Assembly (NCBI GenBank): GCA_963812155.1
Contig: CAWETW010000003.1
Location: 1,216,001-1,280,000, forward strand
From: Vulcanimicrobiota bacterium
GTDB lineage: Bacteria; Vulcanimicrobiota; Vulcanimicrobiia; Vulcanimicrobiales; Vulcanimicrobiaceae
DNA length: 64,000 nucleotides
Direction of reading: 5' to 3'
The first letter of the stretch is position 1, and each line of letters starts with the position of its first letter. The translations under genes and the position numbers were made by a program. This document shows positions 25,829 through 37,107 of the stretch, one piece after another. The notes below the pieces were generated by a model. The model made no database searches, had not been told where the DNA came from, and saw only the letters and a list, made by a program, of their open reading frames with translations.

Positions 25829-27077
25829 ACTCGTTGCGGTCGGGACCGAACTGCTGTTGGGTCAGTTGACCGATACGAACACGCCGCATATCGAACGGCG
25901 GCTCGCGGAGATCGGCGTCGACGTTCGGGGAACGCATGCGGTCGGCGATAATCGCGAACGCATCGCGGAGACGATCCGCAGCGTGCTCGATCGCCGCGAC
26001 GGTGCGATCGTCACCGGCGGACTCGGGCCGACCGTCGACGACCTCACGAAGGAGGCCGTGTGCGACGCGCTCGGTACCGGGACGGAACTCTACGAGCCGG
26101 CGCTGCGGCAGATGGAGGCGTTCTTTGCGCAGATCGGTCGCGAGATGCGGCCGAACAACCGCAAACAGGCCGAACTCCCGCGCGGGAGCTTGCCGTTGGA
26201 GAATCCCTTCGGCACCGCTCCGGGCTTTGTCGCGTTTTCCGCCGGAGGGGGATTCGTGGCGTGCATGCCGGGCGTTCCTCACGAGATGAAACCGATGCTC
26301 GCGAACGCGCTGGTGCCGTTCTTGGTGCAACGCTTCGGGCTGCGCGACGGCATCTACACGCGCGTGCTGCACACGATCGGCATCGGGGAGTCGGAGATCG
26401 ACCATCGCATTGACGACCTGTTTCGCGCGTCTGAAAATCCGAAGCTCGCGGTGCTCGCGCACGGCTCGCGCGCCGACGTCAAGATCATGGCGAAGAGTGC
26501 GAGCGCCGCGCAAGCGCGAGCAATGATCGCGCCGCTGGAGACCGAAATCGAGCGCCGGTTGGAAGGATACGTTTACGGCGCCGACGAGGCGACGATCGAG
26601 TCGGCCGTGCTTGCGTTGTTGCGCGAGCGCGCGTGGACGGCCGCGACGGCGGAGTCGTGTACCGGGGGGCGCATCGCAGCGGCGCTCACGCGGGTGGCGG
26701 GAGCGTCGCAGAGTTTTGCCGGAGGAATCGTCGCTTACGACGACGCGGTCAAGATATCGTCGCTCGGCGTCGACGCACCGTTAATCGCGCACGACGGCGC
26801 GGTGAGCGAAAACGTGGCGCTGGCAATGGCACGCGGAGCGCGCGCGCGGCTGAAGGCCGACGTCGCGCTGTCCACGACCGGCATCGCCGGGCCGAGCGGC
26901 GGATCGGCAGAAAAACCGGTCGGGCTCGTCTACGTTGCCATCGACGACGCAAACGGAAACTCGCGCGCGTGGCACGTGCAGCTGCGTGGAGACCGCGAGA
27001 CGATCCAGTCACGCGCGACTACCTACGCGCTCGGATTGCTCTGGCGCCGGCTTCGCAGCGTTACCGAAGCGTTATGA
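25815..27077 (+). CDS. cinA: competence/damage-inducible protein A (NMN deamidase)
   Basis: VGTELLLGQLTDTN, TGGLGPTVDDLTK, AESCTGG, GAVS, TGIAGPSGG. Confidence 0.95.
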   Translation: MASVELVAVGTELLLGQLTDTNTPHIERRLAEIGVDVRGTHAVGDNRERIAETIRSVLDRRDGAIVTGGLGPTVDDLTKEAVCDALGTGTELYEPALRQMEAFFAQIGREMRPNNRKQAELPRGSLPLENPFGTAPGFVAFSAGGGFVACMPGVPHEMKPMLANALVPFLVQRFGLRDGIYTRVLHTIGIGESEIDHRIDDLFRASENPKLAVLAHGSRADVKIMAKSASAAQARAMIAPLETEIERRLEGYVYGADEATIESAVLALLRERAWTAATAESCTGGRIAAALTRVAGASQSFAGGIVAYDDAVKISSLGVDAPLIAHDGAVSENVALAMARGARARLKADVALSTTGIAGPSGGSAEKPVGLVYVAIDDANGNSRAWHVQLRGDRETIQSRATTYALGLLWRRLRSVTEAL

Positions 27078-27614
27078 GAACTCCAAGCGACGAGGAAGCA
27101 GCGCCGCTGCTTCCGCAACGGCTGGGTGGCGAACGGAAAGCGTTTCCGGCGTTCCTTTAAGCTGTAGACCCTTCTTGTTCCATAAACCGATGCTTTGCCA
27201 TCGCGACTCATAGCGTGACCACCAGGCGATGCCGATCCATCGGCGCGTTTGGTAGATTCGTTCCGACCACGTTTGCGAGATGCTGCGATCCCGCGTTACG
27301 ACCGCCGAGGGAGCCAGGTCGTAGGTCAGAAGCGCAGCGGCGCAGTCGAGATCGCAAATCGAACTTCGATCCGAGAAGGTAAATGCTGCCAGAGCGTATG
27401 GCCGGTCGCGACCTGCAAAAAGCGCCGGCCGCCAGGTGTCGAGCCGGCCGAAAGCCTCGCTTATGGCTCCCGCGGCGGTCGTGCTGAGATAAAGCTCGTG
27501 ATAGATGTCCGGGTTTCCGATGCGACCGAGACCGGATCGCGGTGCGAACATAGGGCCGCCCGGTTCGGACGTCCGCGCGCTGGAGTCATACGGAAATACT
27601 CGGTAAAGCGTCAT
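27072..27614 (-). CDS. RES-domain toxin
   Basis: GRIGNP (R), LYLS..AISEAF (E), WWSR (S); ATGA-coupled to upstream antitoxin. Confidence 0.8.
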   Translation of the reverse strand: MTLYRVFPYDSSARTSEPGGPMFAPRSGLGRIGNPDIYHELYLSTTAAGAISEAFGRLDTWRPALFAGRDRPYALAAFTFSDRSSICDLDCAAALLTYDLAPSAVVTRDRSISQTWSERIYQTRRWIGIAWWSRYESRWQSIGLWNKKGLQLKGTPETLSVRHPAVAEAAALLPRRLEFS

Positions 27615-27997
27615 GCATAAGCACCCGCTTCGATCGCGTCAAGGGCCTCGATCAACGGCGCCGAGCCGCGTTGCGCGAGGACGTCGATCGGTCGCGCCTG
27701 GTTGAGAAACGGCTCGTGTCCGACAAGCCAATCCGTTACGACTTCGGCCGGAAAGACGAGCAGAGCCCGCGCCAGGACGCCGTGCAGATCGAGAATGCGG
27801 CGCGTCATCTTCGCGCTGATCTTCCCGCCGCGCTTCCACCGCGTGACCATCGCAGCATCAACGTCGAGTAGGCGCGCGACGGGATTGTGACCGTATGCTG
27901 CGATCATTTGCAGCAAAAGCGGATGAAGGTCCGTGAGTGCCTGCGGATTATTTGGCGCAACAAAGGGATCGATCGTAGGACTCCAGCGCGCATCCAT
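27611..27997 (-). CDS. Xre/MbcA/ParS-type antitoxin
   Basis: HTH VARLLDVDAAMVTRWKRG; C-terminal WLVGHEPFLNQARPIDVL..GAYA. Confidence 0.85.
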   Translation of the reverse strand: MDARWSPTIDPFVAPNNPQALTDLHPLLLQMIAAYGHNPVARLLDVDAAMVTRWKRGGKISAKMTRRILDLHGVLARALLVFPAEVVTDWLVGHEPFLNQARPIDVLAQRGSAPLIEALDAIEAGAYA

Positions 27998-28049: not shown

Positions 28050-29096
28050 CTAAGTCTTCGGAAGCGTCGGGGTAGCGTAGCCGATCGCTTCCAGCACGCG
28101 TTGCGTTGCGAGCGCCTCTTCAAACGTAGGAAGCGCGTTAGGCCGTCCTTCGATGGCGTCAACGAATTCGTCGTACAACTCCATCAGGAGCGGCACGTTT
28201 CCGTTGATCGAGCCGAAGCGCGCGTACGGCGAGGGCTTGCATTCCAGTTCGCTCGTCTCTTCCGGGTCGATCGAGAAGAGGGTCAACTCCACGATATTGG
28301 GTCCGCTGGCGACGGCAGTACGGTCTTCGCCGTGCACTGCACATGTGTACCCTTCCGCTGACGTTGTACCGTCGACGGTCAACCGGCCGACGAACCCGTC
28401 GCCGTATTCGAGCAACGCGAATGCGCCGTCGTCCACCGTGGAAACGAACTCGCCGGCGTCGTCGCGGCGCCGGTGGTTGGCGGCGCGCGTGAATCCGACT
28501 GCGCGTTGCGGGGCACGGCCGGCGAGCCAATCGGCGTGATCGACGATGTGCGACATCATCGCGCCGGCCAAGCCGCCTCCGCGCTCGCGCTCGAACCACC
28601 AACCCCGGCGGCGCGTCTCGTGGCGGTGAAGCATGCGCCGCAAAAGGCTAATCTCGATGTTCCGGAGCGGATCGAGATGATGGTTGTCGACGAGTTCCTT
28701 GAGCGCGCGCGCCTGCGGGGTGAATCGAAACTCGTGCACGATCCCGCAGGCCGTTCCCGCGTGGGCCGCGGCCTCGACCATGCGCTCCGCCGACTCGACG
28801 TTGAGGGCGAAGGGTTTTTCGCAGAGGACGTGTTTTTCGCGTTCGAGCGATGCGAGGACGTCGTGCACGTGCGAGAACGGCGGCGATGCCACCAGGACGG
28901 CGTCGAGCTCGCAGCCGGCGAGCATTTCGTCGCACGAACGAAATGCGTGCGGAATCGTCCCCTCGGCGGCGTGCCGCGCGGCGCTCGACGGCGATGCCAG
29001 CGCGACGACGTCGAAGCGCGGATGGGCCCGCAGCGCCGGCAGATGCGAACTGACGCCGAACCCTGCGCCGACGATACCCACGCGAATCGGATCCAT
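28050..29096 (-). CDS. Gfo/Idh/MocA family oxidoreductase
   Basis: RVGIVGAGFG, KHVLCEKPFA, GGGLAGAMMSHIVD. Confidence 0.92.
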   Translation of the reverse strand: MDPIRVGIVGAGFGVSSHLPALRAHPRFDVVALASPSSAARHAAEGTIPHAFRSCDEMLAGCELDAVLVASPPFSHVHDVLASLEREKHVLCEKPFALNVESAERMVEAAAHAGTACGIVHEFRFTPQARALKELVDNHHLDPLRNIEISLLRRMLHRHETRRRGWWFERERGGGLAGAMMSHIVDHADWLAGRAPQRAVGFTRAANHRRRDDAGEFVSTVDDGAFALLEYGDGFVGRLTVDGTTSAEGYTCAVHGEDRTAVASGPNIVELTLFSIDPEETSELECKPSPYARFGSINGNVPLLMELYDEFVDAIEGRPNALPTFEEALATQRVLEAIGYATPTLPKT

Positions 29097-29105
29097 CGTC
29101 CGCTC

Positions 29106-30404
29106 CTACTCGGCCGCGCCGGCCGCGGCCTCCAGGAGATCCAGTCCGCGCGACAGCTGCGTTTGCGTGATGACGAGCGGAGGCGAGATCGAAATGGCGT
29201 CCCCGCGCGTGCCCGATTGCAACAGAATGAGACCGCGCTGCAACGCGCCTCTGACCACGCCTTGCGCGGTTGCAGCGTCGCGAAACTGCACGGCCCATAG
29301 GAGCCCGCGCCCGCGCACTTCGCGGACGAGGCGCCGCGAACGAACGTCTTCCAGGCGCGTGCGAAGGTACGGCTCGAAGGCGGCGGCTCGCGCGACGAGA
29401 TCGAGCCGCTCGATCTCCTCGATGGTCGCGAGCGCGGCTGCGCAGCCCATCGGGTTGCCGAGATACGTCGACGTATGCAGGGCTTCGCCGCGCGATACGG
29501 GCCACGCATCCATGATCGTTGCGCGCGCTATCGTCGCGCTGATCGGGAAGCCGGATCCCATGGCTTTTCCGATGCAGAGAATATCCGGCATTACCGCCTC
29601 GCGCTGCACGGCAAACCACGTGCCGGTCCGGCCGAAGCCGGTGAAGATTTCGTCGGCGATCAGCAGCGCGCCGATCTCGTCGCACAGCGCGCGCAGCGCG
29701 CGCAGGTATCCGTCGGGGGGGACGACGGCGCCGCCGCGCCCTTGAATCGGCTCGACGATGACGGCGGCGACGTCCCCAGCCGCGTGCAGCGAGGCGCGCG
29801 TATCCGCGATCGCCTCGCCGGCCGTGATGCCGCTTGCCGCATCCGGATAGTTTAACGGCACTGCCTCGGGGCCGAGCGCCCGAGCGAACGGACCCCGGAA
29901 CGTCTCGATTCCGCACAGCGGCAGCGTGCCGAGCGAAAGTCCGTGATACGCGCCGCGATACGCGGCAAAGCGCGCGCGGCCCGTCGCGAGCATCGCGGTC
30001 TTGAGGGCCGCTTCGACGGCTTCGGACCCCGTGGTAGCGAGAAATATTTTCCACGCAGCGCCGGGAAGCAACGCCGCAAGCCGTTCGAGCAGGCGCGCGC
30101 GCATTGCGGTTGGATGCACGTCGCCCATGCCGTGCGTCAGGCGTGCGGCTTGTTCGGCGATGGCCGCGGCAACGCGGCGATTCGCATGCCCCGCGTTGGC
30201 GACGCCAAACGCCGCGGTAAAATCGAGATACCGGTTTCCATCCACGTCGGTGACCGTCGCGCCCTCGGCGCAGTCCCAGAAAACCGGAAAGTCGTCGAAG
30301 AACGCGGTAACGTTCTGCGATTCGAATTGCCGCAGCAGGGCTCGATAGCGGTGCGATGCCGGACCGGGAACGGCGCCCGTCATGCAATCGAGATCGTCGC
30401 TCAC
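29106..30404 (-). CDS. class III PLP-dependent aminotransferase
   Basis: DVDGNRYLDF, TGSEAVE, EPIQGRGG, IADEIFTGFGRTG, PDILCIGKAMG; GTG overlaps luxC-like stop. Confidence 0.93.
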   Translation of the reverse strand: MSDDLDCMTGAVPGPASHRYRALLRQFESQNVTAFFDDFPVFWDCAEGATVTDVDGNRYLDFTAAFGVANAGHANRRVAAAIAEQAARLTHGMGDVHPTAMRARLLERLAALLPGAAWKIFLATTGSEAVEAALKTAMLATGRARFAAYRGAYHGLSLGTLPLCGIETFRGPFARALGPEAVPLNYPDAASGITAGEAIADTRASLHAAGDVAAVIVEPIQGRGGAVVPPDGYLRALRALCDEIGALLIADEIFTGFGRTGTWFAVQREAVMPDILCIGKAMGSGFPISATIARATIMDAWPVSRGEALHTSTYLGNPMGCAAALATIEEIERLDLVARAAAFEPYLRTRLEDVRSRRLVREVRGRGLLWAVQFRDAATAQGVVRGALQRGLILLQSGTRGDAISISPPLVITQTQLSRGLDLLEAAAGAAE

Positions 30405-31651
30405 GTTTCGTCGCCGATCCAACGCACGAACTCGGCGATGCGCGGCCGCCCCCCGTGATATCCACGCAGCGGCGGCGATTGCAGCGCGCCGAACGCGGCG
30501 ATGCGCAACGCACCCAACGCGCGTGCGGTCGCCGCGGCGCCATCCTGGAGACCGGCGGCGGCGAGCGCTTCGATCGGAATGCGATGCCGCGCGACGTAGT
30601 GCGCAGCATCGGCGGGTGCGTCCACGCTGAAAACCGCGAGTGCCCGTGGCAGAAACGGCGGCGAATCGTCGCGCGGCTGGTCGAGCACGATGAGATGCGC
30701 CGCGTCCGGTCGGGAAAAGACCGCTCCGCACGCACCGCTTGCGCGGAACGCCGCGGCATCGCGCGCGGCGGCTACCGGCGCCAAGCGCCCTGCATCGAAT
30801 GCGCCCGGCGGAAACTCCACGCTCGCGTGCTCGGTTGCATGTGCGAGCATCCTGCAGAACTCTTCCGGCGACACGCCGCCGCCTCGTTCGACGAAGAGCA
30901 CGCGCAGCGAAAGGCAGCCTTCGGTGTCGTAGAGCACGAGGTCGCGCGCGGCGCCTTCGGCGATGCGCGCGGCGTTCGCGGCAGTGTCGAGTGCGTCGCG
31001 TCCGACGTAGCCGCAGCTCGCCTTCGAACCGTAGCCGATCCAGCGCGCCGCAGCAGCCAGATCCGCGCGAATACGCTGCAGCGTTGCGTCGTCGCCGAAC
31101 GCTACGACCGCGGCGAACTCGTCGAGACGGCGGCGGTCGCGTTCTCCGTCCCACGTCAACGTCGCGGCCGCCGTTGCAAACTCCTCGAGTTCCTCGGTCA
31201 GCGTTTTGAAGAATGCTGCAACCAGCGCGTCGTCGCGGTCCTTGACGAGCACGTCGCATTTCGCGCACAGTGCGAAGATCGCCGGGACGATGGCGACGCC
31301 GACTGTCGTGCGGCTCGACAGGATGCAGACGCGCCCGACCGGCAGCGCGCGCGAACGCAGTCGTCCGGGCGCGTCGACGAAACCGTCGAGCGCCTCGAGC
31401 GATCCCAATTCGTTTCGAATGACGTCTTCGATTGCATCGCGCGTCACTGCGGAAAAGAGACGATCGAGGGCATACTCGACGACGGGCGTGGAATAGCCGG
31501 TGCGCTCGCACGCTGCGGCGATGACGCGAACGCGCGGCGGGAAGTCGGCGTCGATCCAGCGTTCGGCGGCGTCGCCGATGGCGCGGACGATCGAACGAAC
31601 CGGGCGCTCGATGAGTGAGCCTGCGAAGAAATCCATGTAGCGGTCGTGCAT
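30401..31651 (-). CDS. LuxC-like acyl-CoA/acyl-protein reductase
   Basis: ALDH-like fold: VVAFGDDATL, IGYGSKAS, ARDLVLYDTEGCLS (catalytic Cys region), HGGRPRIAEFVRW. Confidence 0.82.
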   Translation of the reverse strand: MHDRYMDFFAGSLIERPVRSIVRAIGDAAERWIDADFPPRVRVIAAACERTGYSTPVVEYALDRLFSAVTRDAIEDVIRNELGSLEALDGFVDAPGRLRSRALPVGRVCILSSRTTVGVAIVPAIFALCAKCDVLVKDRDDALVAAFFKTLTEELEEFATAAATLTWDGERDRRRLDEFAAVVAFGDDATLQRIRADLAAAARWIGYGSKASCGYVGRDALDTAANAARIAEGAARDLVLYDTEGCLSLRVLFVERGGGVSPEEFCRMLAHATEHASVEFPPGAFDAGRLAPVAAARDAAAFRASGACGAVFSRPDAAHLIVLDQPRDDSPPFLPRALAVFSVDAPADAAHYVARHRIPIEALAAAGLQDGAAATARALGALRIAAFGALQSPPLRGYHGGRPRIAEFVRWIGDET

Positions 31652-31712
31652 CTTCGAGCGGGAAGCGCGAAACTCCCGAGGTCCTCGAGCCGCGAGCGGC
31701 TAAAGGCGCGGC

Positions 31713-32936
31713 ATGCCCTGGTTGCCTCGCGCATTTTTTCTGCTCGTCGCGACGGTCGCGATCGCCGGCGCCGGCTGCACGAGATACGGCAAGCCGACGC
31801 CGGTGCCACCGACGATTCCACCCCTCACGGTGCTTATCGTTAATCCCGTCAGCGGGAGCGACACGACCGGTAACGGCACGAGCGAGAAGCCATACAAGAC
31901 GCTGACGAAAGCGCTCGCCGTCGTGAAAAACTCGACGACGCCGGGACTGACGATTCAACTCGCCGCGGGACAGTACTCGGCGGCGAGCGGGGAAACGTTC
32001 CCGATCGTCGTTCCGACGGGCGTCACCATCGACGGCAGCGGTTACACGGGGCAGACCGGCTTCCCGAAAGGGACGTTCATCAACGGCATCGGCGAGGATA
32101 CGGCTCTCGAGAAGCTCGCCGGCTTTGCCCCGCAATCCGCCTACACGACGCTCGAGATCGGCGCCGGCGTAACGTCGGTTTCGCTCAACAATATCTACGC
32201 GGGCGTCACGCGGTTTGGAACGCTCAACCCGAGGGCCGCCTATAGCACGCTCGACGCGCTCGGTTCGTTAAGCATTGGGCATGCGTCGCTCGGGGCCGGG
32301 ACGTTGTTCAGGGGCCATCCTAATGGAACCGGAATCGCCGTGCCGAGCGGCGATCTTACGTGCATCGGCTGCGCGATTGCGGGTGGCGCTGCGGCGCTAG
32401 TCGCGTACACGCTGCCTAACGGCGCATCGCCGCCGCTCATCGTCTTGAGCGGGCAGCCGACGCAGGGCATCATCGGCGGCGCTATCGGCATCCTGAGCGA
32501 TGGATACGCCGGTATCACCGCGTCGTATCAAACGTTTCAGTCGAAACAGTACGCTTTTTCGGACAAGTTTGCGCCGCTCGTTCCTTCGAGTGGATCGTTC
32601 GCTTTGAGCACGCCGGATTTCGGCAACGCGCCGAATACCGCTTCGCCCGGCGGCAACTCGTTCATCGGCGTTGGAACCTCGGGCCTCCTCGTCACGTTGC
32701 CGCTCGATCAAGTCTACGCCGAAGGCGATTACTGGACGCCCAACCAGCAAGGCGCCAACGTGCACGGCCAGTATCCTAGGAAGCGCCTTTTTAGCGCCGG
32801 AGCGAGCGGCAAGAACGTCACCATCGCGGGCAACGCCTCGGGTGCGGCGGTCCTGGTCGGCCCCATTCCACCGCCGACGCCGACGCCTCCGCCGTCCGGG
32901 GAGCCGAGCACGAGCCCTTCGGCGAGCCCGACGTAG
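31713..32936 (+). CDS. DUF1565-domain lipoprotein (beta-helix-like) with Pro/Ser/Thr tail
   Basis: Lipobox GAGC; VNPVSGSDTTGNGTSEKPYKTLTKAL, IQLAAGQYS..GETFPI. Confidence 0.8.
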   Translation: MPWLPRAFFLLVATVAIAGAGCTRYGKPTPVPPTIPPLTVLIVNPVSGSDTTGNGTSEKPYKTLTKALAVVKNSTTPGLTIQLAAGQYSAASGETFPIVVPTGVTIDGSGYTGQTGFPKGTFINGIGEDTALEKLAGFAPQSAYTTLEIGAGVTSVSLNNIYAGVTRFGTLNPRAAYSTLDALGSLSIGHASLGAGTLFRGHPNGTGIAVPSGDLTCIGCAIAGGAAALVAYTLPNGASPPLIVLSGQPTQGIIGGAIGILSDGYAGITASYQTFQSKQYAFSDKFAPLVPSSGSFALSTPDFGNAPNTASPGGNSFIGVGTSGLLVTLPLDQVYAEGDYWTPNQQGANVHGQYPRKRLFSAGASGKNVTIAGNASGAAVLVGPIPPPTPTPPPSGEPSTSPSASPT

Positions 32937-32941
32937 ACGCG

Positions 32942-34057
32942 CTAGGCGACTGGGTGCAGGGTTTCGGCGTCGAGCGAGCAGCCGCGTAACGCCGCCCCGC
33001 TCTCGCGCCCGATCAGCACGACCGCATCGCCGAAACGCGCGCCGAGATCTTCGGTAGCGACGGCGACGCACGACGCGCGGTTCGCAAGATCCACGTGCAC
33101 GAGCGCGCCGACCGTACCCTCGGGCAGCGTCGTACCGTCGGGACCGACGACTCGCGCTCGAAGCCACGGCGGTGCATACTTCTTGCGCGCATCGGCCACG
33201 GCGTGTTCCCCGCGCGCCAAGAGGCCGTCGTAATACTGCGAGCTCAGTTCGGTCATTCCGTATTCGGCGACGATCGCGTCGAGCGGAACGGCGAACGCAC
33301 GGCGGGCGCGCGCGTAGAGGCCGGAGCGTTCGACGATACGCGCGCGGCCTTTGAAGCCCCCCGTTTCCATGATGCGCGACCCCGGTGAAAGCTCGAAATG
33401 TAAAGAACGTTCCTCGAGTGCGTCGAGAGCGCCGGCGAGCGCAAACGCGGTCGTCGCGATGCACACCGGCGCATCATCCGACGCAGCGCGGCGCAAGGCC
33501 TCAAAAAATTCGCCGAGCGCGAGGGCGTCGCCGCGGACGTACCAGCCAGTTTGGCCGTCGCCGCGCCGTTCGCAGACCCGGCCCATCATGTAAGCGAGTG
33601 ACGAACGGGGACGCTCCGACGGAGCCGGAACGAGGTTGAGATAGCGCAGCGGCTTGCCGTCGGGCAGCATGAAGCGGTCGAATCCGGCAAGGAGCGCGGC
33701 ATCGTAGAGATCCGGTGTTTCGAAGTAATGGCGCCCTGGTCTGCCGCCGGTCGTGCCGCTGGTTTCGAAGACCAGCGCGGCGCGCGCCGGATCGAACGTC
33801 GCGAGGACGGCGTCTTTGAAGGCCGCCGCCGGCGCCGGCGGAATCTCGTCCGGCGATTGCGGCGGCAGCGACGTCGAAATGCCGCGGGCCGCGCAGTAGC
33901 GCGCATAGGGTGCGTTGTAACGCATTTGATAGTCGAACACGTCGAGTGCGAGCGCGTCGAATCCGGCGTCGTCGAGCGCGTCGCCCGTGCGGTGCCAGCG
34001 ATCGATTGCAGCGAAAATGCGGGCGTCGAGCGCGTCGGATTCGTCGCGATAGGTCAC
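32942..34057 (-). CDS. LuxE-like acyl-protein synthetase
   Basis: FETSGTTG adenylation motif, SSLAYM, METGGFKG, EYGMTELSSQYY, VDLAN, TEDLG, LRGCS terminal Cys. Confidence 0.88.
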   Translation of the reverse strand: MTYRDESDALDARIFAAIDRWHRTGDALDDAGFDALALDVFDYQMRYNAPYARYCAARGISTSLPPQSPDEIPPAPAAAFKDAVLATFDPARAALVFETSGTTGGRPGRHYFETPDLYDAALLAGFDRFMLPDGKPLRYLNLVPAPSERPRSSLAYMMGRVCERRGDGQTGWYVRGDALALGEFFEALRRAASDDAPVCIATTAFALAGALDALEERSLHFELSPGSRIMETGGFKGRARIVERSGLYARARRAFAVPLDAIVAEYGMTELSSQYYDGLLARGEHAVADARKKYAPPWLRARVVGPDGTTLPEGTVGALVHVDLANRASCVAVATEDLGARFGDAVVLIGRESGAALRGCSLDAETLHPVA

Positions 34058-34533
34058 GGGGTGCGGCGGCGCGACGTGATGACGCCGCTGTTGAGGCCGC
34101 TGGTCGCGAGGCCGCCGTCGAAGCGGGCGTGCTCGACCTTCACGCAGCGGTCCACGACCACCGTCAAGCCCGCGGCATCGGCCTTCGCAATGGCGTCCTC
34201 GTTGACGACGCCGTACTGAAACCAGATCGCTCGCGCGCCGGCGGCAATCGCGTCCTCGACGACCGCGACGGCGTCGGACGGCTTGCGAAAGACGTCGACG
34301 AGATCCGGCGCGCCGCGATCGGCGGCGTAGGCGGCGAGCGACGGATACGCGCGCACGCCGTCGATCGCGTCGACCGACGGATTGATCGGGGTCGCGTCGT
34401 ACGGCGTCTGCGTGCGCAGATACGAAAAGACCGTGTAACTGGGCCGCAGTGCGTTGGGCGACGCACCGACGACGGCAATGGTTCGCACGGTGCGCAGTAA
34501 CGCTTGCCGCTGCGACGGCGTGCGCGCGATCAC
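34054..34533 (-). CDS. CoA-binding protein (YccU-like)
   Basis: TIAVVGAS, AYPSL, DLVDVFR, IWFQYGV, VVDRC; overlaps metY stop and luxE-like start. Confidence 0.9.
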   Translation of the reverse strand: MIARTPSQRQALLRTVRTIAVVGASPNALRPSYTVFSYLRTQTPYDATPINPSVDAIDGVRAYPSLAAYAADRGAPDLVDVFRKPSDAVAVVEDAIAAGARAIWFQYGVVNEDAIAKADAAGLTVVVDRCVKVEHARFDGGLATSGLNSGVITSRRRTP

Positions 34534-35786
34534 GCCGGAGCGGTCGCCGGAATCGCCGCAGCCGAGAGAGCGCGGTCGACGTCCCAGATCAGATCCTCCA
34601 CGTTTTCGAGACCGACCGAAAGCCGCACGAGTTCGGGTGGGACGCCGGCTTTTTCGAGCTCGCCGTCGGAAAGCTGCGAGTGCGTCGTCGACGCAGGATG
34701 GATGACCAGGCTTTTGGCATCGCCGACGTTGGCGAGATGACTCCACAGTTCGAGCGCGTCGATGAAGCGGCGTCCGGCATCGCGGCCGCCGCGCAGACCG
34801 AACGTGAAGATCGAGCCCATGCGCGGCTCGCGCACCCACGCGACCTCGTCGCGCGTTTTCAAATGGGCGGAAATCGCGCGCGCGTTGGCGACGTGCTTCT
34901 CCATGCGAAGTGGGAGCGTCTCGAGACCGAGCAGCATGAGCCAGGCATCCATCGGCGCCATCTGCGCGCCGACGTCGCGCAGCACCTCGGCGCGCGCCCG
35001 CATGAGAAAGGCGTACTCGCCGAACGTCTCGCTAAACATCTTGCCGTGGTAACCCGGACTCGGCTCGGTGAGCAGCGGATAACGCCCGTTGTGCCAGGGA
35101 AACGTTCCCGATTCGATCAGCACGCCGCCGATGGTCGTCCCGTGACCGCTGATGAACTTGGTTGCGGAATGGAGCACGAGGTCGGCGCCGTGTTCGATCG
35201 GCCGAAATAGATACGGCGACGCAAACGTGTTGTCGACGGCCAGCGCCACGCCGGCTTCGTGCGCGACGCGAGCGAGGCCGGCAACGTCGGCGATTTCGCC
35301 GGAGGGATTAGCAACCGTCTCGACCAGCACCATACGTGTATTTGGCCGAATCGCCGCGCGCACCGCGTCGAGGTCGCTCGCCGGCACGAACGCCGTCTCG
35401 ATGCCCATGCGTTTGACGGTGACGGCGAGTTGGGTCGTCGTGCCGCCGTAGACGTGCTGCGAACAGACGAGATGGTCGCCGTTCTGGGCGAGCGAGAGCA
35501 CCGCGCACAGTTGTGCCGCTAACCCGCTGGAGAAAGCGATTGCGCCCAAGCCTCCTTCGAGGCTGGCCATCCGTTCCTCGAACGCCGCAACCGTCGGATT
35601 GCTGATGCGGCTGTAAATGTGGCCGTAGCCGCGCAGAGCAAAGAGTTCCGCCGCCTGCTCGGTCGAGCCGAAAACGTACGCCGCGGTTTGATAGATCGGC
35701 GCGACGCGCGCGCCGGTCGCGGGATCCGGCGGTGCGCCCGCGTGAATCGCGCGGGTCGAGAAGCCGAATTGCCGATCCTGCTGCAT
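34530..35786 (-). CDS. metY: O-acetylhomoserine aminocarboxypropyltransferase/cysteine synthase
   Basis: PIYQTAAYVF, YSRISNPT, VDNTFASP, HSATKFISGHG, HLANVGDAKSLVIHPASTTH. Confidence 0.92.
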   Translation of the reverse strand: MQQDRQFGFSTRAIHAGAPPDPATGARVAPIYQTAAYVFGSTEQAAELFALRGYGHIYSRISNPTVAAFEERMASLEGGLGAIAFSSGLAAQLCAVLSLAQNGDHLVCSQHVYGGTTTQLAVTVKRMGIETAFVPASDLDAVRAAIRPNTRMVLVETVANPSGEIADVAGLARVAHEAGVALAVDNTFASPYLFRPIEHGADLVLHSATKFISGHGTTIGGVLIESGTFPWHNGRYPLLTEPSPGYHGKMFSETFGEYAFLMRARAEVLRDVGAQMAPMDAWLMLLGLETLPLRMEKHVANARAISAHLKTRDEVAWVREPRMGSIFTFGLRGGRDAGRRFIDALELWSHLANVGDAKSLVIHPASTTHSQLSDGELEKAGVPPELVRLSVGLENVEDLIWDVDRALSAAAIPATAPA

Positions 35787-35820
35787 GACTCGCGTGGTTC
35801 GCCGGATAACCGTTCTCCTC

Positions 35821-37107
35821 ATGGGAATGACGCTTACCGAGAAAATCCTGGCTCGCCACGCCGGCGTGGATTGCGTGGAACCGGGGCAGATTATCAACGC
35901 CAAAGTCGACCTCGTCCTCGCCAACGAACTGTCGGCCGCGGTTGCCATCGGCGTCATGCGCCGCATCAAAGGCGCCGATCGCGTCTTCGACCCGGAGCGG
36001 ATTGCGCTGGTCGAAGACCACTTCGTTCCGGCGAAGGACGCGCAATCCGCGAAACTTGCGAAGCTGATGAAAGATTTCGCGGTCGAGCAAAAGATCACGC
36101 ACTTTTTCGACGTCGGTCGCGGTGGTATCGAGCACGTCGTCCTGCCCGAAGAGGGTCTCGTCGCGCCCGGAGAGTTGATCGTCGGGGGCGACTCACACAC
36201 GTGCACGTACGGCGCGTTCGGCGCATTTGCGACGGGCATGGGATCGACCGACATCGCCGCGGCGTTCGTCCTCGGCGAGGTATGGCTCAAGGTTCCCGCG
36301 TCCATCAAAATCGTCTACGAAGGCAAACTCGGGCCGATGGTGTTCGCCAAAGACGTCATGCTGAGAACGGTCGGCGAACTAGGAATCGACGGCGCGACCT
36401 ACCGCGCCATCGAGTACCATGGAAGCACCGTCGACGAACTGTCGATTACCGGCCGCATCACGATGGCCAACATGGCGATCGAGGCGGGTGCCAAGAACGG
36501 CATCTTTCACGCCGACGAAAAAACGCTGGCGTACGTGCGCGAACGGACGAACCGGCCCTTCCTCGTCGAGAAGGCGGACGCAGACGCATCCTACGAACGC
36601 GAACTGCGCATCGACGTGGGAACGCTCGAACCGCAAGTCGCGTGTCCGCATACACCCGACAACGTGCATCCGATCTCGGAAATTGCCGCCGGCGACGTGC
36701 CCGTCGATCAAGTCTTCATCGGCTCGTGCACCAACGGCTACATCGACGATCTCCGCGTGGTGGCGAAGATTCTCGAAGGCCGCCGGATTGCCGACAGTTT
36801 GCGCGTCATCGTCAATCCGGGCAGCCAGAAAGTCTGGATGCAGGCGGCGCAAGAAGGCATTCTTACGACGCTGGCGGCAGCCGGCTGCGCGGTCAACACT
36901 CCAGGCTGCGGCGCGTGCTTCGGCGGGCATATGGGCACGCTCGGCGACGGCGAACGCGCGATCTCGACGACCAACCGTAACTACGTCGGACGTATGGGAT
37001 CGCCCAAAGCCGAGGTCTTCCTTGCTTCACCGGCGACGTGCGCGGCGTCGGCGTTGACCGGAAAGATTACCGATCCGCGTACGGTCACGGCGCTGGTGGA
37101 AGCTTAG
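35821..37107 (+). CDS. leuC: 3-isopropylmalate dehydratase/homoaconitase large subunit
   Basis: MGMTLTEKIL, DSHTCTYGA, FIGSCTNG, PGCGACFG, STTNRN. Confidence 0.9.
   Translation: MGMTLTEKILARHAGVDCVEPGQIINAKVDLVLANELSAAVAIGVMRRIKGADRVFDPERIALVEDHFVPAKDAQSAKLAKLMKDFAVEQKITHFFDVGRGGIEHVVLPEEGLVAPGELIVGGDSHTCTYGAFGAFATGMGSTDIAAAFVLGEVWLKVPASIKIVYEGKLGPMVFAKDVMLRTVGELGIDGATYRAIEYHGSTVDELSITGRITMANMAIEAGAKNGIFHADEKTLAYVRERTNRPFLVEKADADASYERELRIDVGTLEPQVACPHTPDNVHPISEIAAGDVPVDQVFIGSCTNGYIDDLRVVAKILEGRRIADSLRVIVNPGSQKVWMQAAQEGILTTLAAAGCAVNTPGCGACFGGHMGTLGDGERAISTTNRNYVGRMGSPKAEVFLASPATCAASALTGKITDPRTVTALVEA

Follow-up and report, generated by a model that had tools for sequence, protein, structure and literature searches.

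A LuxE-like, LuxC-like and class III aminotransferase trio as a likely replacement for QueC and QueF in a class of Vulcanimicrobiota

During our analysis of a Vulcanimicrobiota (Eremiobacterota) genome, which is 84% complete, we encountered genes for a LuxE-like enzyme, a LuxC-like reductase and a class III aminotransferase (AT) that are likely to replace QueC and QueF, carrying 7-carboxy-7-deazaguanine (CDG) to 7-aminomethyl-7-deazaguanine (preQ1) via an aldehyde and not a nitrile. In the textbook conversion of CDG to preQ1, QueC forms the nitrile and QueF reduces it, and genomes without queC and queF are scored as queuosine salvagers. We infer the substrate, the product and all reactions of the trio from the genes, their catalytic residues, their linkage and their pattern of presence and absence, which are described below. 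In the proposed route the LuxE-like enzyme would use ATP to adenylate the CDG carboxylate, holding the resulting thioester on C360; the acyl group would then pass to C246 of the LuxC-like protein, from which NAD(P)H would release 7-formyl-7-deazaguanine, and the PLP-dependent AT would transaminate this aldehyde to preQ1, to be converted to queuosine in tRNA by Tgt, QueA and QueG. Judged by sequence, acid-to-amine chemistry by the trio is well supported, and its substrate is probably something other than a fatty acid. Among the matches listed, our literature searches returned no report of such a CDG route or of a link between LuxC/LuxE and queuosine (a 2024 review, PMC10966956, was not covered).

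The trio lies within a window of 64,000 nucleotides, the whole stretch of DNA that was analysed. The five genes named in a preliminary description of this DNA (all those on the minus strand below, except the MetY-like gene) are present:

28050..29096, minus strand: Gfo/Idh/MocA oxidoreductase
29106..30404, minus strand: class III PLP aminotransferase (AT), 432 aa (PF00202, 343 bits)
30401..31651, minus strand: LuxC-like thioester reductase, 416 aa (PF05893, 130 bits)
31713..32936, plus strand: DUF1565 protein with a lipoprotein-like leader (PF07602)
32942..34057, minus strand: LuxE-like adenylate-forming enzyme, 371 aa (PF04443, 30.6 bits against a cut-off of 24.9)
34054..34533, minus strand: CoA_binding_2 protein, 159 aa (PF13380)
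34530..35825, minus strand: MetY-like Cys/Met PLP enzyme (PF01053), first gene of the upstream block

Inspection of the sequence bore out the arrangement reported earlier, with the five genes on one strand, GTGA overlaps at the CoA-binding/luxE and luxC/AT junctions and a gap of 9 nt between AT and the Gfo gene; a further GTGA overlap joins metY to the CoA-binding gene. The plus-strand DUF1565 gene, previously unmentioned, separates luxE from luxC, which therefore form two blocks at this locus. The reported lack of luxA, luxB and luxD in the window holds more widely, since none of 7 genomes from the genus, this one among them, has a match to the luciferase family PF00296, and none of 5 genomes has one to the LuxD family PF02273.

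Comparison with related loci shows that the conserved core consists of the luxE-like, luxC-like and class III AT genes. The luxC-like gene adjoins AT in all 67 loci of relatives that have at least 1.5 kb of downstream sequence, so the link on which the preliminary description had relied is conserved. Of 70 close loci, 21 have no luxE upstream of luxC, and in these split cases the luxE gene is kept elsewhere in the genome; in one family (f3) the trio is intact within new flanking genes. The Gfo/Idh/MocA gene is present in 59 of 65 close loci. Its counterpart in family f2 is only 24-29% identical, and none was detected beside the trio in f3, where three of five genomes carry unlinked homologs of 32-34% identity. 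We regard it as a co-transcribed passenger or accessory outside the core, and rejected it as a pathway member because it is not conserved with the trio. The DUF1565 gene (29 of 70 loci, lying between luxE and luxC in 8) and metY (35 of 63 close loci) were set aside on the same ground. The CoA_binding_2 gene travels with metY and was likewise excluded; 40 of 63 close loci have it, and no copy was detected at the loci of families f2 and f3. Of the cluster originally proposed, the LuxE-like, LuxC-like and AT members thus stand as the core, from which the CoA-binding and Gfo genes drop out. In two word-index protein searches the named matches listed came almost entirely from the same phylum.

The catalytic residues expected of each enzyme are retained. 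The sole solved relative of the LuxE-like protein detectable by sequence is the LuxE of 7XC6 (E 1e-7). An SGT loop, TGGFKG (K236), EYGMxEL, R351 and GCS (C360) are invariant in 15 of 15 aligned proteins, and the GC motif is found in 78 of 81 LuxE locus sequences, some of them redundant. The predicted fold of the LuxE-like protein matches PaaK-type ligases, the top matches being aryl- and small-acid ligases, although 7XC6 was not among the matches listed and a search of this kind cannot specify the substrate. In the LuxC-like protein, C246 occupies the position of the catalytic Cys in the alignment with 7XC6 LuxC; all 15 sequences compared share this residue, and the surrounding motif is present in 111 of 118 locus sequences. 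Both LuxC-like and LuxE-like proteins fall far under the NCBIfam cut-offs (NF052251, 29.4 against 750; NF052244, 37.2 against 550). Together with the conserved luxC-AT link, these residues support the earlier proposal of a luciferase-free module leading from acid to aldehyde to amine.

The AT has the PLP lysine, the DExxxGFGRTG motif and the fold of a class III PLP enzyme, with D251 and K280 invariant; the fold is of the GABA-AT type (TM-score of about 0.9 to GabT). In GABA, ornithine and putrescine aminotransferases the Glu of a QGE motif pairs with a C-terminal Arg. Aligned to putrescine aminotransferase, the AT motif EPIQGRGG places an Arg where that enzyme has Glu, and the C-terminal Arg is missing; of 100 AT locus sequences, 99 carry Arg in place of that Glu and none carries the C-terminal Arg. 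The AT also scores under every listed NCBIfam cut-off. Judged by motif and cut-offs, it is a distinct class III subfamily and not the plain GABA or ornithine transaminase that the preliminary description had named as an alternative. Among the best 20 of 2203 records, a plasmid search with AT gave generic class III enzymes only, with identity not exceeding about 41%.

The distribution of queuosine genes was surveyed in 121 genomes of the phylum, 52 from the class of the locus and 69 from other classes. All 52 class genomes encode a LuxE ortholog (E<1e-109), an AT ortholog (E<1e-172), a LuxC-family match and a QueE homolog; QueC over the cut-off occurs in 0/52 and a QueF match of any kind in 0/52. 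Across the class as a whole QueC exceeds the cut-off in 1 of 385 genomes, and in 0 of the 208 of high quality. In the genome of the locus neither QueC nor QueF gave a match at E 0.1 with three queries. FolE2, QueD, Tgt and QueG were each found in all 5 genomes examined for them; QueA is present in 48 of 51 and FolE1 in none of 51. The class therefore possesses the flanking Que genes without QueC or QueF, so that exactly the step from CDG to preQ1 is missing. The salvage transporter YhhQ was over the cut-off in 0 of 51 genomes, in a search that left aside the QueT and QPTR types. The Tgt of this genome keeps residues matching Cys158 and Val233, the reference residues of preQ1-type Tgt (PMC3660597).

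Within this comparison, which covers the one phylum, none of the 69 genomes of other classes has the LuxE ortholog, and QueC accompanies QueE in each of the 22 where QueE has a match. A strong QueF match is found in only 12 of these genomes and QueC in 29; absence of QueF is by itself not diagnostic. The class-wide pattern represents one evolutionary event, not 52. Que models give the best matches to QueE and QueD of this genome, yet both score under the cut-off (119.7 bits against 240 and 88.1 against 89.25), and some 440 kb separate the queD-queE pair from the trio. The searches detected no preQ1 riboswitch, and neither the window nor 27 loci gave any riboswitch for the trio that reaches the gathering threshold. 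The lone QueC copy of the class adjoins a gene of the DndB family.

Clustering with que genes is observed in other lineages. We examined 80 metagenome loci, many of them short, judging gene content at the level of the locus and not of the host genome. Trio-type genes abut queE, queD or queG in 10 of the 80, 70 have no que neighbour, and no QueC or QueF homolog was found in any. One locus (L156) carries a queE-AT-luxEC fusion. The order luxE-luxC-queD occurs in seven loci, which are confined to one region of the tree and have no AT nearby, and queG-AT-luxE-luxC occurs in two (L172 and L177), where the AT is of a different type with QGE. An AT with the QGRGG motif of the class precedes luxE in 10 loci outside it, and AT-luxE-luxC is an order seen repeatedly in other lineages, the AT there being of two types. 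Some members of the family are LuxE-LuxC fusions; for some, an alcohol dehydrogenase is the fusion partner or a linked gene.

It is unlikely that the trio, with CDG or a similar deazapurine as its substrate, gives a product not destined for tRNA queuosine, or that it uses a nucleotide- or tRNA-bound form. The strongest clustering is with queD and queE, which are upstream of all deazapurine products; however, the association with queG in L172 and L177 and the retention of Tgt, QueA and QueG point to tRNA queuosine, and the finding of no relatives of the trio in viral and phage collections argues against another use for a deazapurine.

A role in thiamine-related salvage, whereby an oxidised pyrimidine or thiazole acid would be reduced and aminated, is very improbable for the trio itself. 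Of the annotated plasmid homologs, the nearest (32-38% identity in LuxE) follow TPP riboswitches in 5 of 6 loci, in the company of SDR/OarX-like, NMT1/THI5, ThiW or xanthine/uracil permease genes, and reductive thiamine salvage of this kind has been proposed (PMC11223231). These TPP-linked proteins nevertheless form a separate clade (support 0.996) that excludes the protein encoded in the window, and their partner is a reductase in place of an AT. No TPP riboswitch was found in the window or in the loci of relatives, and the only one in the genome lies elsewhere, upstream of a gene that, from its motif, we take to be thiC.

Equally improbable is the product favoured in the preliminary description, a fatty amine or amino-lipid. 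LuxC and LuxE of luminous bacteria do reduce fatty acids (PMC9157457), and TabE with TabA of tambjamine biosynthesis yields dodecylamine (10.1101/2025.08.11.669332). Against this, LuxD is absent, no lipid gene, ACP, thioesterase or amine-using ligase adjoins the trio in the examined loci, and the aryl- and small-acid ligases among the modelled fold matches may point, weakly, to other substrates. A fatty amine would also leave the que clustering and the lack of QueC and QueF unexplained; the queuosine pathway is favoured because gene neighbours and presence/absence point there.

There is still less reason to suppose that the trio replaces kinase, reductase and transaminase steps of arginine, proline or lysine synthesis. 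Two genomes (G000 and G001) have only two amino-acid-kinase family matches each, the AT resembles ArgD/GabT, and neighbouring genes include leuCD and metY. However, another genome that has the trio (G018) also carries what we read as proBA and argB, genes of the DAP pathway are present, and the AT is without the Arg that binds the alpha-carboxylate in ArgD/GabT-type aminotransferases. Just as remote is the prospect that the AT merely lies nearby, unconnected in function, and that luxE and luxC yield an aldehyde or alcohol only: the split luxE genes, the queD-linked loci without AT and the alcohol dehydrogenase fusions or links would fit, but the invariable luxC-AT adjacency, the intact trio of f3, the recurrence of AT-luxE-luxC with two AT types and the retention of luxE when split argue otherwise. 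Bioluminescence is out, given the PF00296 and PF02273 counts.

If the trio does replace QueC and QueF, an entire class of bacteria abundant in soil, together with members of other phyla, would be de novo queuosine producers, and metabolic reconstructions of queuine supply would change; the route from CDG to preQ1 via the QueC nitrile and QueF has until now been treated as fixed. Many proteins whose present labels wrongly point to bioluminescence or fatty-acid enzymes would gain a function, and the known carboxylate reductases would be joined by a carrier-free type acting on heteroaromatic acids. The sister branch found with OarX under TPP riboswitches bears on the open question of OarX, and suggests that the family handles small heteroaromatic acids. 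We tentatively propose, at somewhat less than even likelihood, that non-luminous LuxE/LuxC proteins are largely heteroaromatic carboxylate reductases, which with an AT would provide nitrile-free conversion of CDG to preQ1 in the whole class and several phyla, and with OarX under TPP riboswitches would recover oxidised thiamine fragments and furnish the partners for activation and reduction that were missing from tests of OarX.

The proposed route shares with that of QueC and QueF its start at CDG, its end at preQ1, ATP-dependent carboxylate activation and reduction by NAD(P)H. The folds of the trio are unrelated, thioester and aldehyde intermediates would replace the nitrile, the nitrogen would be introduced by PLP transamination, and preQ0 would not arise. 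LuxC-LuxE of Photobacterium phosphoreum (PDB 7XC6; PMC9157457) belongs to the same Pfam families, and the trio keeps residues matching Lys238, Arg355 and Cys364 of its LuxE and the catalytic Cys of its LuxC; in contrast to that system, the LuxC-like protein is shorter, luxAB and luxD are absent, and the genes are linked to AT and que genes. In the OarX thiamin-salvage candidates (PMC11223231), whose function is unproven, the sister LuxE/LuxC branch sits with an SDR under TPP control; that separate clade ends in a reductase (giving an alcohol), whereas the trio ends in an AT. Tambjamine TabE/TabA and TamH (10.1101/2025.08.11.669332) likewise combine a LuxC-related reductase with a class III transaminase to give a primary amine, using there an acyl-ACP substrate within a natural-product cluster and no LuxE partner. 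Unlike the tambjamine genes, the trio is single-copy, class-wide and housekeeping-like.

All five genes of the luciferase-free luxE/luxC and aminotransferase cluster, together with both GTGA overlaps (CoA-binding/luxE and luxC/aminotransferase) and the 9-nt gap between the aminotransferase and Gfo genes, were seen in the window as the preliminary description had reported, and a DUF1565 gene stands between luxE and luxC on the opposite strand:

28050-29096, minus strand, Gfo/Idh/MocA oxidoreductase
29106-30404, minus strand, class III aminotransferase
30401-31651, minus strand, LuxC-like reductase
31713-32936, plus strand, DUF1565 protein
32942-34057, minus strand, LuxE-like protein
34054-34533, minus strand, CoA-binding protein
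34530-35825, minus strand, metY

The host genome (2.96 Mb, 84% complete) carries one copy each of LuxE and LuxC, and its relatives are labelled Vulcanimicrobiota or Eremiobacterota, Ca. Tumulicola being the nearest named. Luciferase family matches are lacking in all seven genomes of the genus, this one included, which upholds the luciferase-free character of the cluster, and none of five genomes matches the LuxD family. In the Gfo protein the EKP motif is retained; the position before the conserved His, usually Asp, is Ala in 57 of 63 Gfo sequences, and the protein is degenerate in family f2. At 27072-27997 (minus strand) an Xre/ParS-like antitoxin gene, assigned on a weak NCBIfam match, and a downstream 180-aa open reading frame resembling a RES-type partner sit between Gfo and cinA, and are present in only one of 79 relative loci.

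These 79 loci, taken from genome contigs, constitute our neighbourhood survey of relatives. The proposed luxC-aminotransferase link is conserved among them, the aminotransferase following luxC directly in 67/67 loci with enough DNA. Gfo comes next in 59/65, and luxE (49/70), the CoA-binding gene (40/63) and metY (35/63) are found upstream. Since leuCD, cinA and nadE are frequently syntenic as well, trio synteny in close relatives proves little by itself. In the distant family f3, where LuxC is 25-33% identical, luxE-luxC-aminotransferase is unbroken within new flanks in 5/5 loci and three more genomes; no Gfo, CoA-binding or metY gene was detected at these f3 loci. A luxE missing upstream is present elsewhere in the genome (15/15 genomes of genus g23 have luxE). 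The core of the cluster is therefore the trio.

The LuxE-like protein keeps, by sequence comparison, residues equivalent to Lys238, Arg355 and Cys364 of Photobacterium LuxE, and the LuxC-like protein keeps its catalytic cysteine (for residue roles see PMC9157457 and PMC12041015), although both fall far under the lux equivalog cut-offs. The best matches of the predicted LuxE-like structure (pLDDT 87) are PaaK-type ligases. The aminotransferase has the PLP lysine and a GABA-aminotransferase fold but differs from putrescine aminotransferase at two sites, with Arg replacing the QGEGG Glu and no C-terminal Arg; among 100 locus sequences, some redundant, Arg occupies the former position in 99 and the C-terminal Arg occurs in none. 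Acid-to-amine chemistry, as originally suggested, is very probably what the trio performs, although its PLP enzyme may instead catalyse a non-transaminase PLP reaction. A plain GABA/ornithine aminotransferase is unlikely on these residues, because the Glu/Arg pair that presumably governs alpha-carboxylate binding is missing.

At E<=1e-30 the LuxE-like subfamily is wide, with 1,696 representatives, among them fusions of LuxE with LuxC and of an alcohol dehydrogenase with LuxE; the clusters listed for it in the Atlas include ones from Myxococcota, Pseudomonadota and Verrucomicrobiota. A zinc alcohol dehydrogenase is fused to or precedes the LuxE-like protein in P0277, P0295, P0312 and locus L182, suggesting alcohol production as a third role for the module. 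A distinct LuxE/LuxC group occurs in other classes of the phylum (L139, L149, L150), with LuxC fusions of about 885 aa and pairs within acyl-carrier/polysaccharide clusters; the L139 pair has a queE homolog nearby, encoded on the other strand, and its genome possesses QueC. Among 27 plasmid records with LuxE homologs, the six neighbourhoods inspected contain luxE then luxC with an SDR nearby, and five have an upstream TPP riboswitch; genes for NMT1/THI5, ThiW and permeases are among the neighbours. From metagenomes, 80 loci were kept from 600 of about 14,000 stretches, and seven carry OarX-like genes. The luxE-luxC-OarX operons are:

L122-L125 and L127, with OarX-like SDR, plasmids of Pantoea, Azospirillum, Niallia, Lactiplantibacillus and Pseudomonas
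L126, with OarX-like SDR, Priestia
L213, L215, L216, L226, L228, L230 and L231, with OarX-like gene, metagenome

Some also carry NMT1/THI5 ABC, ThiW or permease genes. OarX has been proposed to help salvage oxidised thiamine fragments by reduction, and no such salvage was found in Corynebacterium glutamicum (PMC11223231). LuxE and LuxC are apparently not named in the main text of that paper, and its Table S1 may include these genes. The operons bear on the OarX question it raises, and may constitute the whole pathway by which oxidised thiamine fragments are reduced. This context suggests small heteroaromatic acids as substrates of the subfamily, and 7-carboxy-7-deazaguanine (CDG) was therefore considered for the trio.

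CDG is a carboxylic acid, and the queuosine precursor preQ1 is the corresponding aminomethyl compound, so that a set of one activating enzyme, one thioester reductase and one transaminase matches the missing conversion exactly. The LuxE-like protein would activate CDG, the LuxC-like protein would reduce the thioester and the aminotransferase would deliver preQ1.

The host genome encodes adjacent queD and queE (C3:803334-804273), FolE2 fused to FolK, Tgt, QueA and QueG; QueC and QueF were not found in this 84% complete genome. The HPPK-FolE2 fusion lies at L249:1381-2868 (contig C4), and a search of 51 class genomes gave no FolE1. Tgt retains equivalents of Cys158/Val233 of the preQ1-using type (PMC3660597). 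We surveyed 121 genomes of the phylum, 52 from this class and 69 from others; the unpublished G022, G036 and G156 are tally rows only, and our claims are independent of all three. A LuxE ortholog, an aminotransferase ortholog, a LuxC-family match and a QueE homolog each occur in 52/52 class genomes; QueF occurs in 0/52, as does QueC over cut-off, with weak QueC-like matches in two. QueA is present in 48/51, and YhhQ over cut-off in 0/51. The 69 other-class genomes contain no LuxE ortholog (16 weak matches, 1e-12 to 1e-20) and one weak aminotransferase match; QueC exceeds the cut-off in 29, and is matched in 22/22 with a QueE match. Across the whole class QueC matches number 2/385, one over cut-off. 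These two (L251 and L252, genomes G450:C1 and G425:C614) are probably acquired DNA-modification islands; the first, which is the one over cut-off, adjoins a DndB-family gene and the second has a similar-looking open reading frame. The class-wide pattern is a single evolutionary event, and QueF absence is common in itself, with strong matches in only 12 other-class genomes. Only two amino-acid-kinase family genes each were seen in the whole host genome (84% complete) and in genome G001, so that ArgB and ProB appear to be missing from both.

Linkage to que genes recurs in the metagenome loci:

L156, queE, 14-nt gap, aminotransferase, 4-nt overlap, luxE-luxC fusion
L172 and L177, queG-aminotransferase-luxE-luxC

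In seven further cases queD immediately follows luxC (7/7 over the TIGR03367 cut-off), the aminotransferase not being adjacent. No que gene is seen in 70 of the 80 loci, and QueC and QueF occur in none (locus DNA only). In 6/6 genomes of family f3, luxE and queE are 14-23 kb apart, a weak linkage. A FastTree phylogeny of 93 sequences, with domains under 300 aa excluded and deep nodes poorly supported, spreads the que-linked proteins over several branches around the window's clade and gathers the TPP/OarX proteins in one nested clade (support 0.996). By clustering, L175 is allied to a Verrucomicrobiae protein and both L172 and L165 to Methylomirabilales/NC10; L202, whose source label is Ca. Aquilonibacter, nevertheless falls with L175 in the tree. 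We count at least three independent linkages, to three different que genes.

We consider it likely that the trio makes preQ1 from CDG. The queuosine routes given in a 2026 review are the canonical enzymes and salvage only (PMC13602947), and among the listed titles and abstract beginnings of openly available papers, none describes the trio route. The logic of a reductase plus a transaminase is already known from TabE/TabA of tambjamine.
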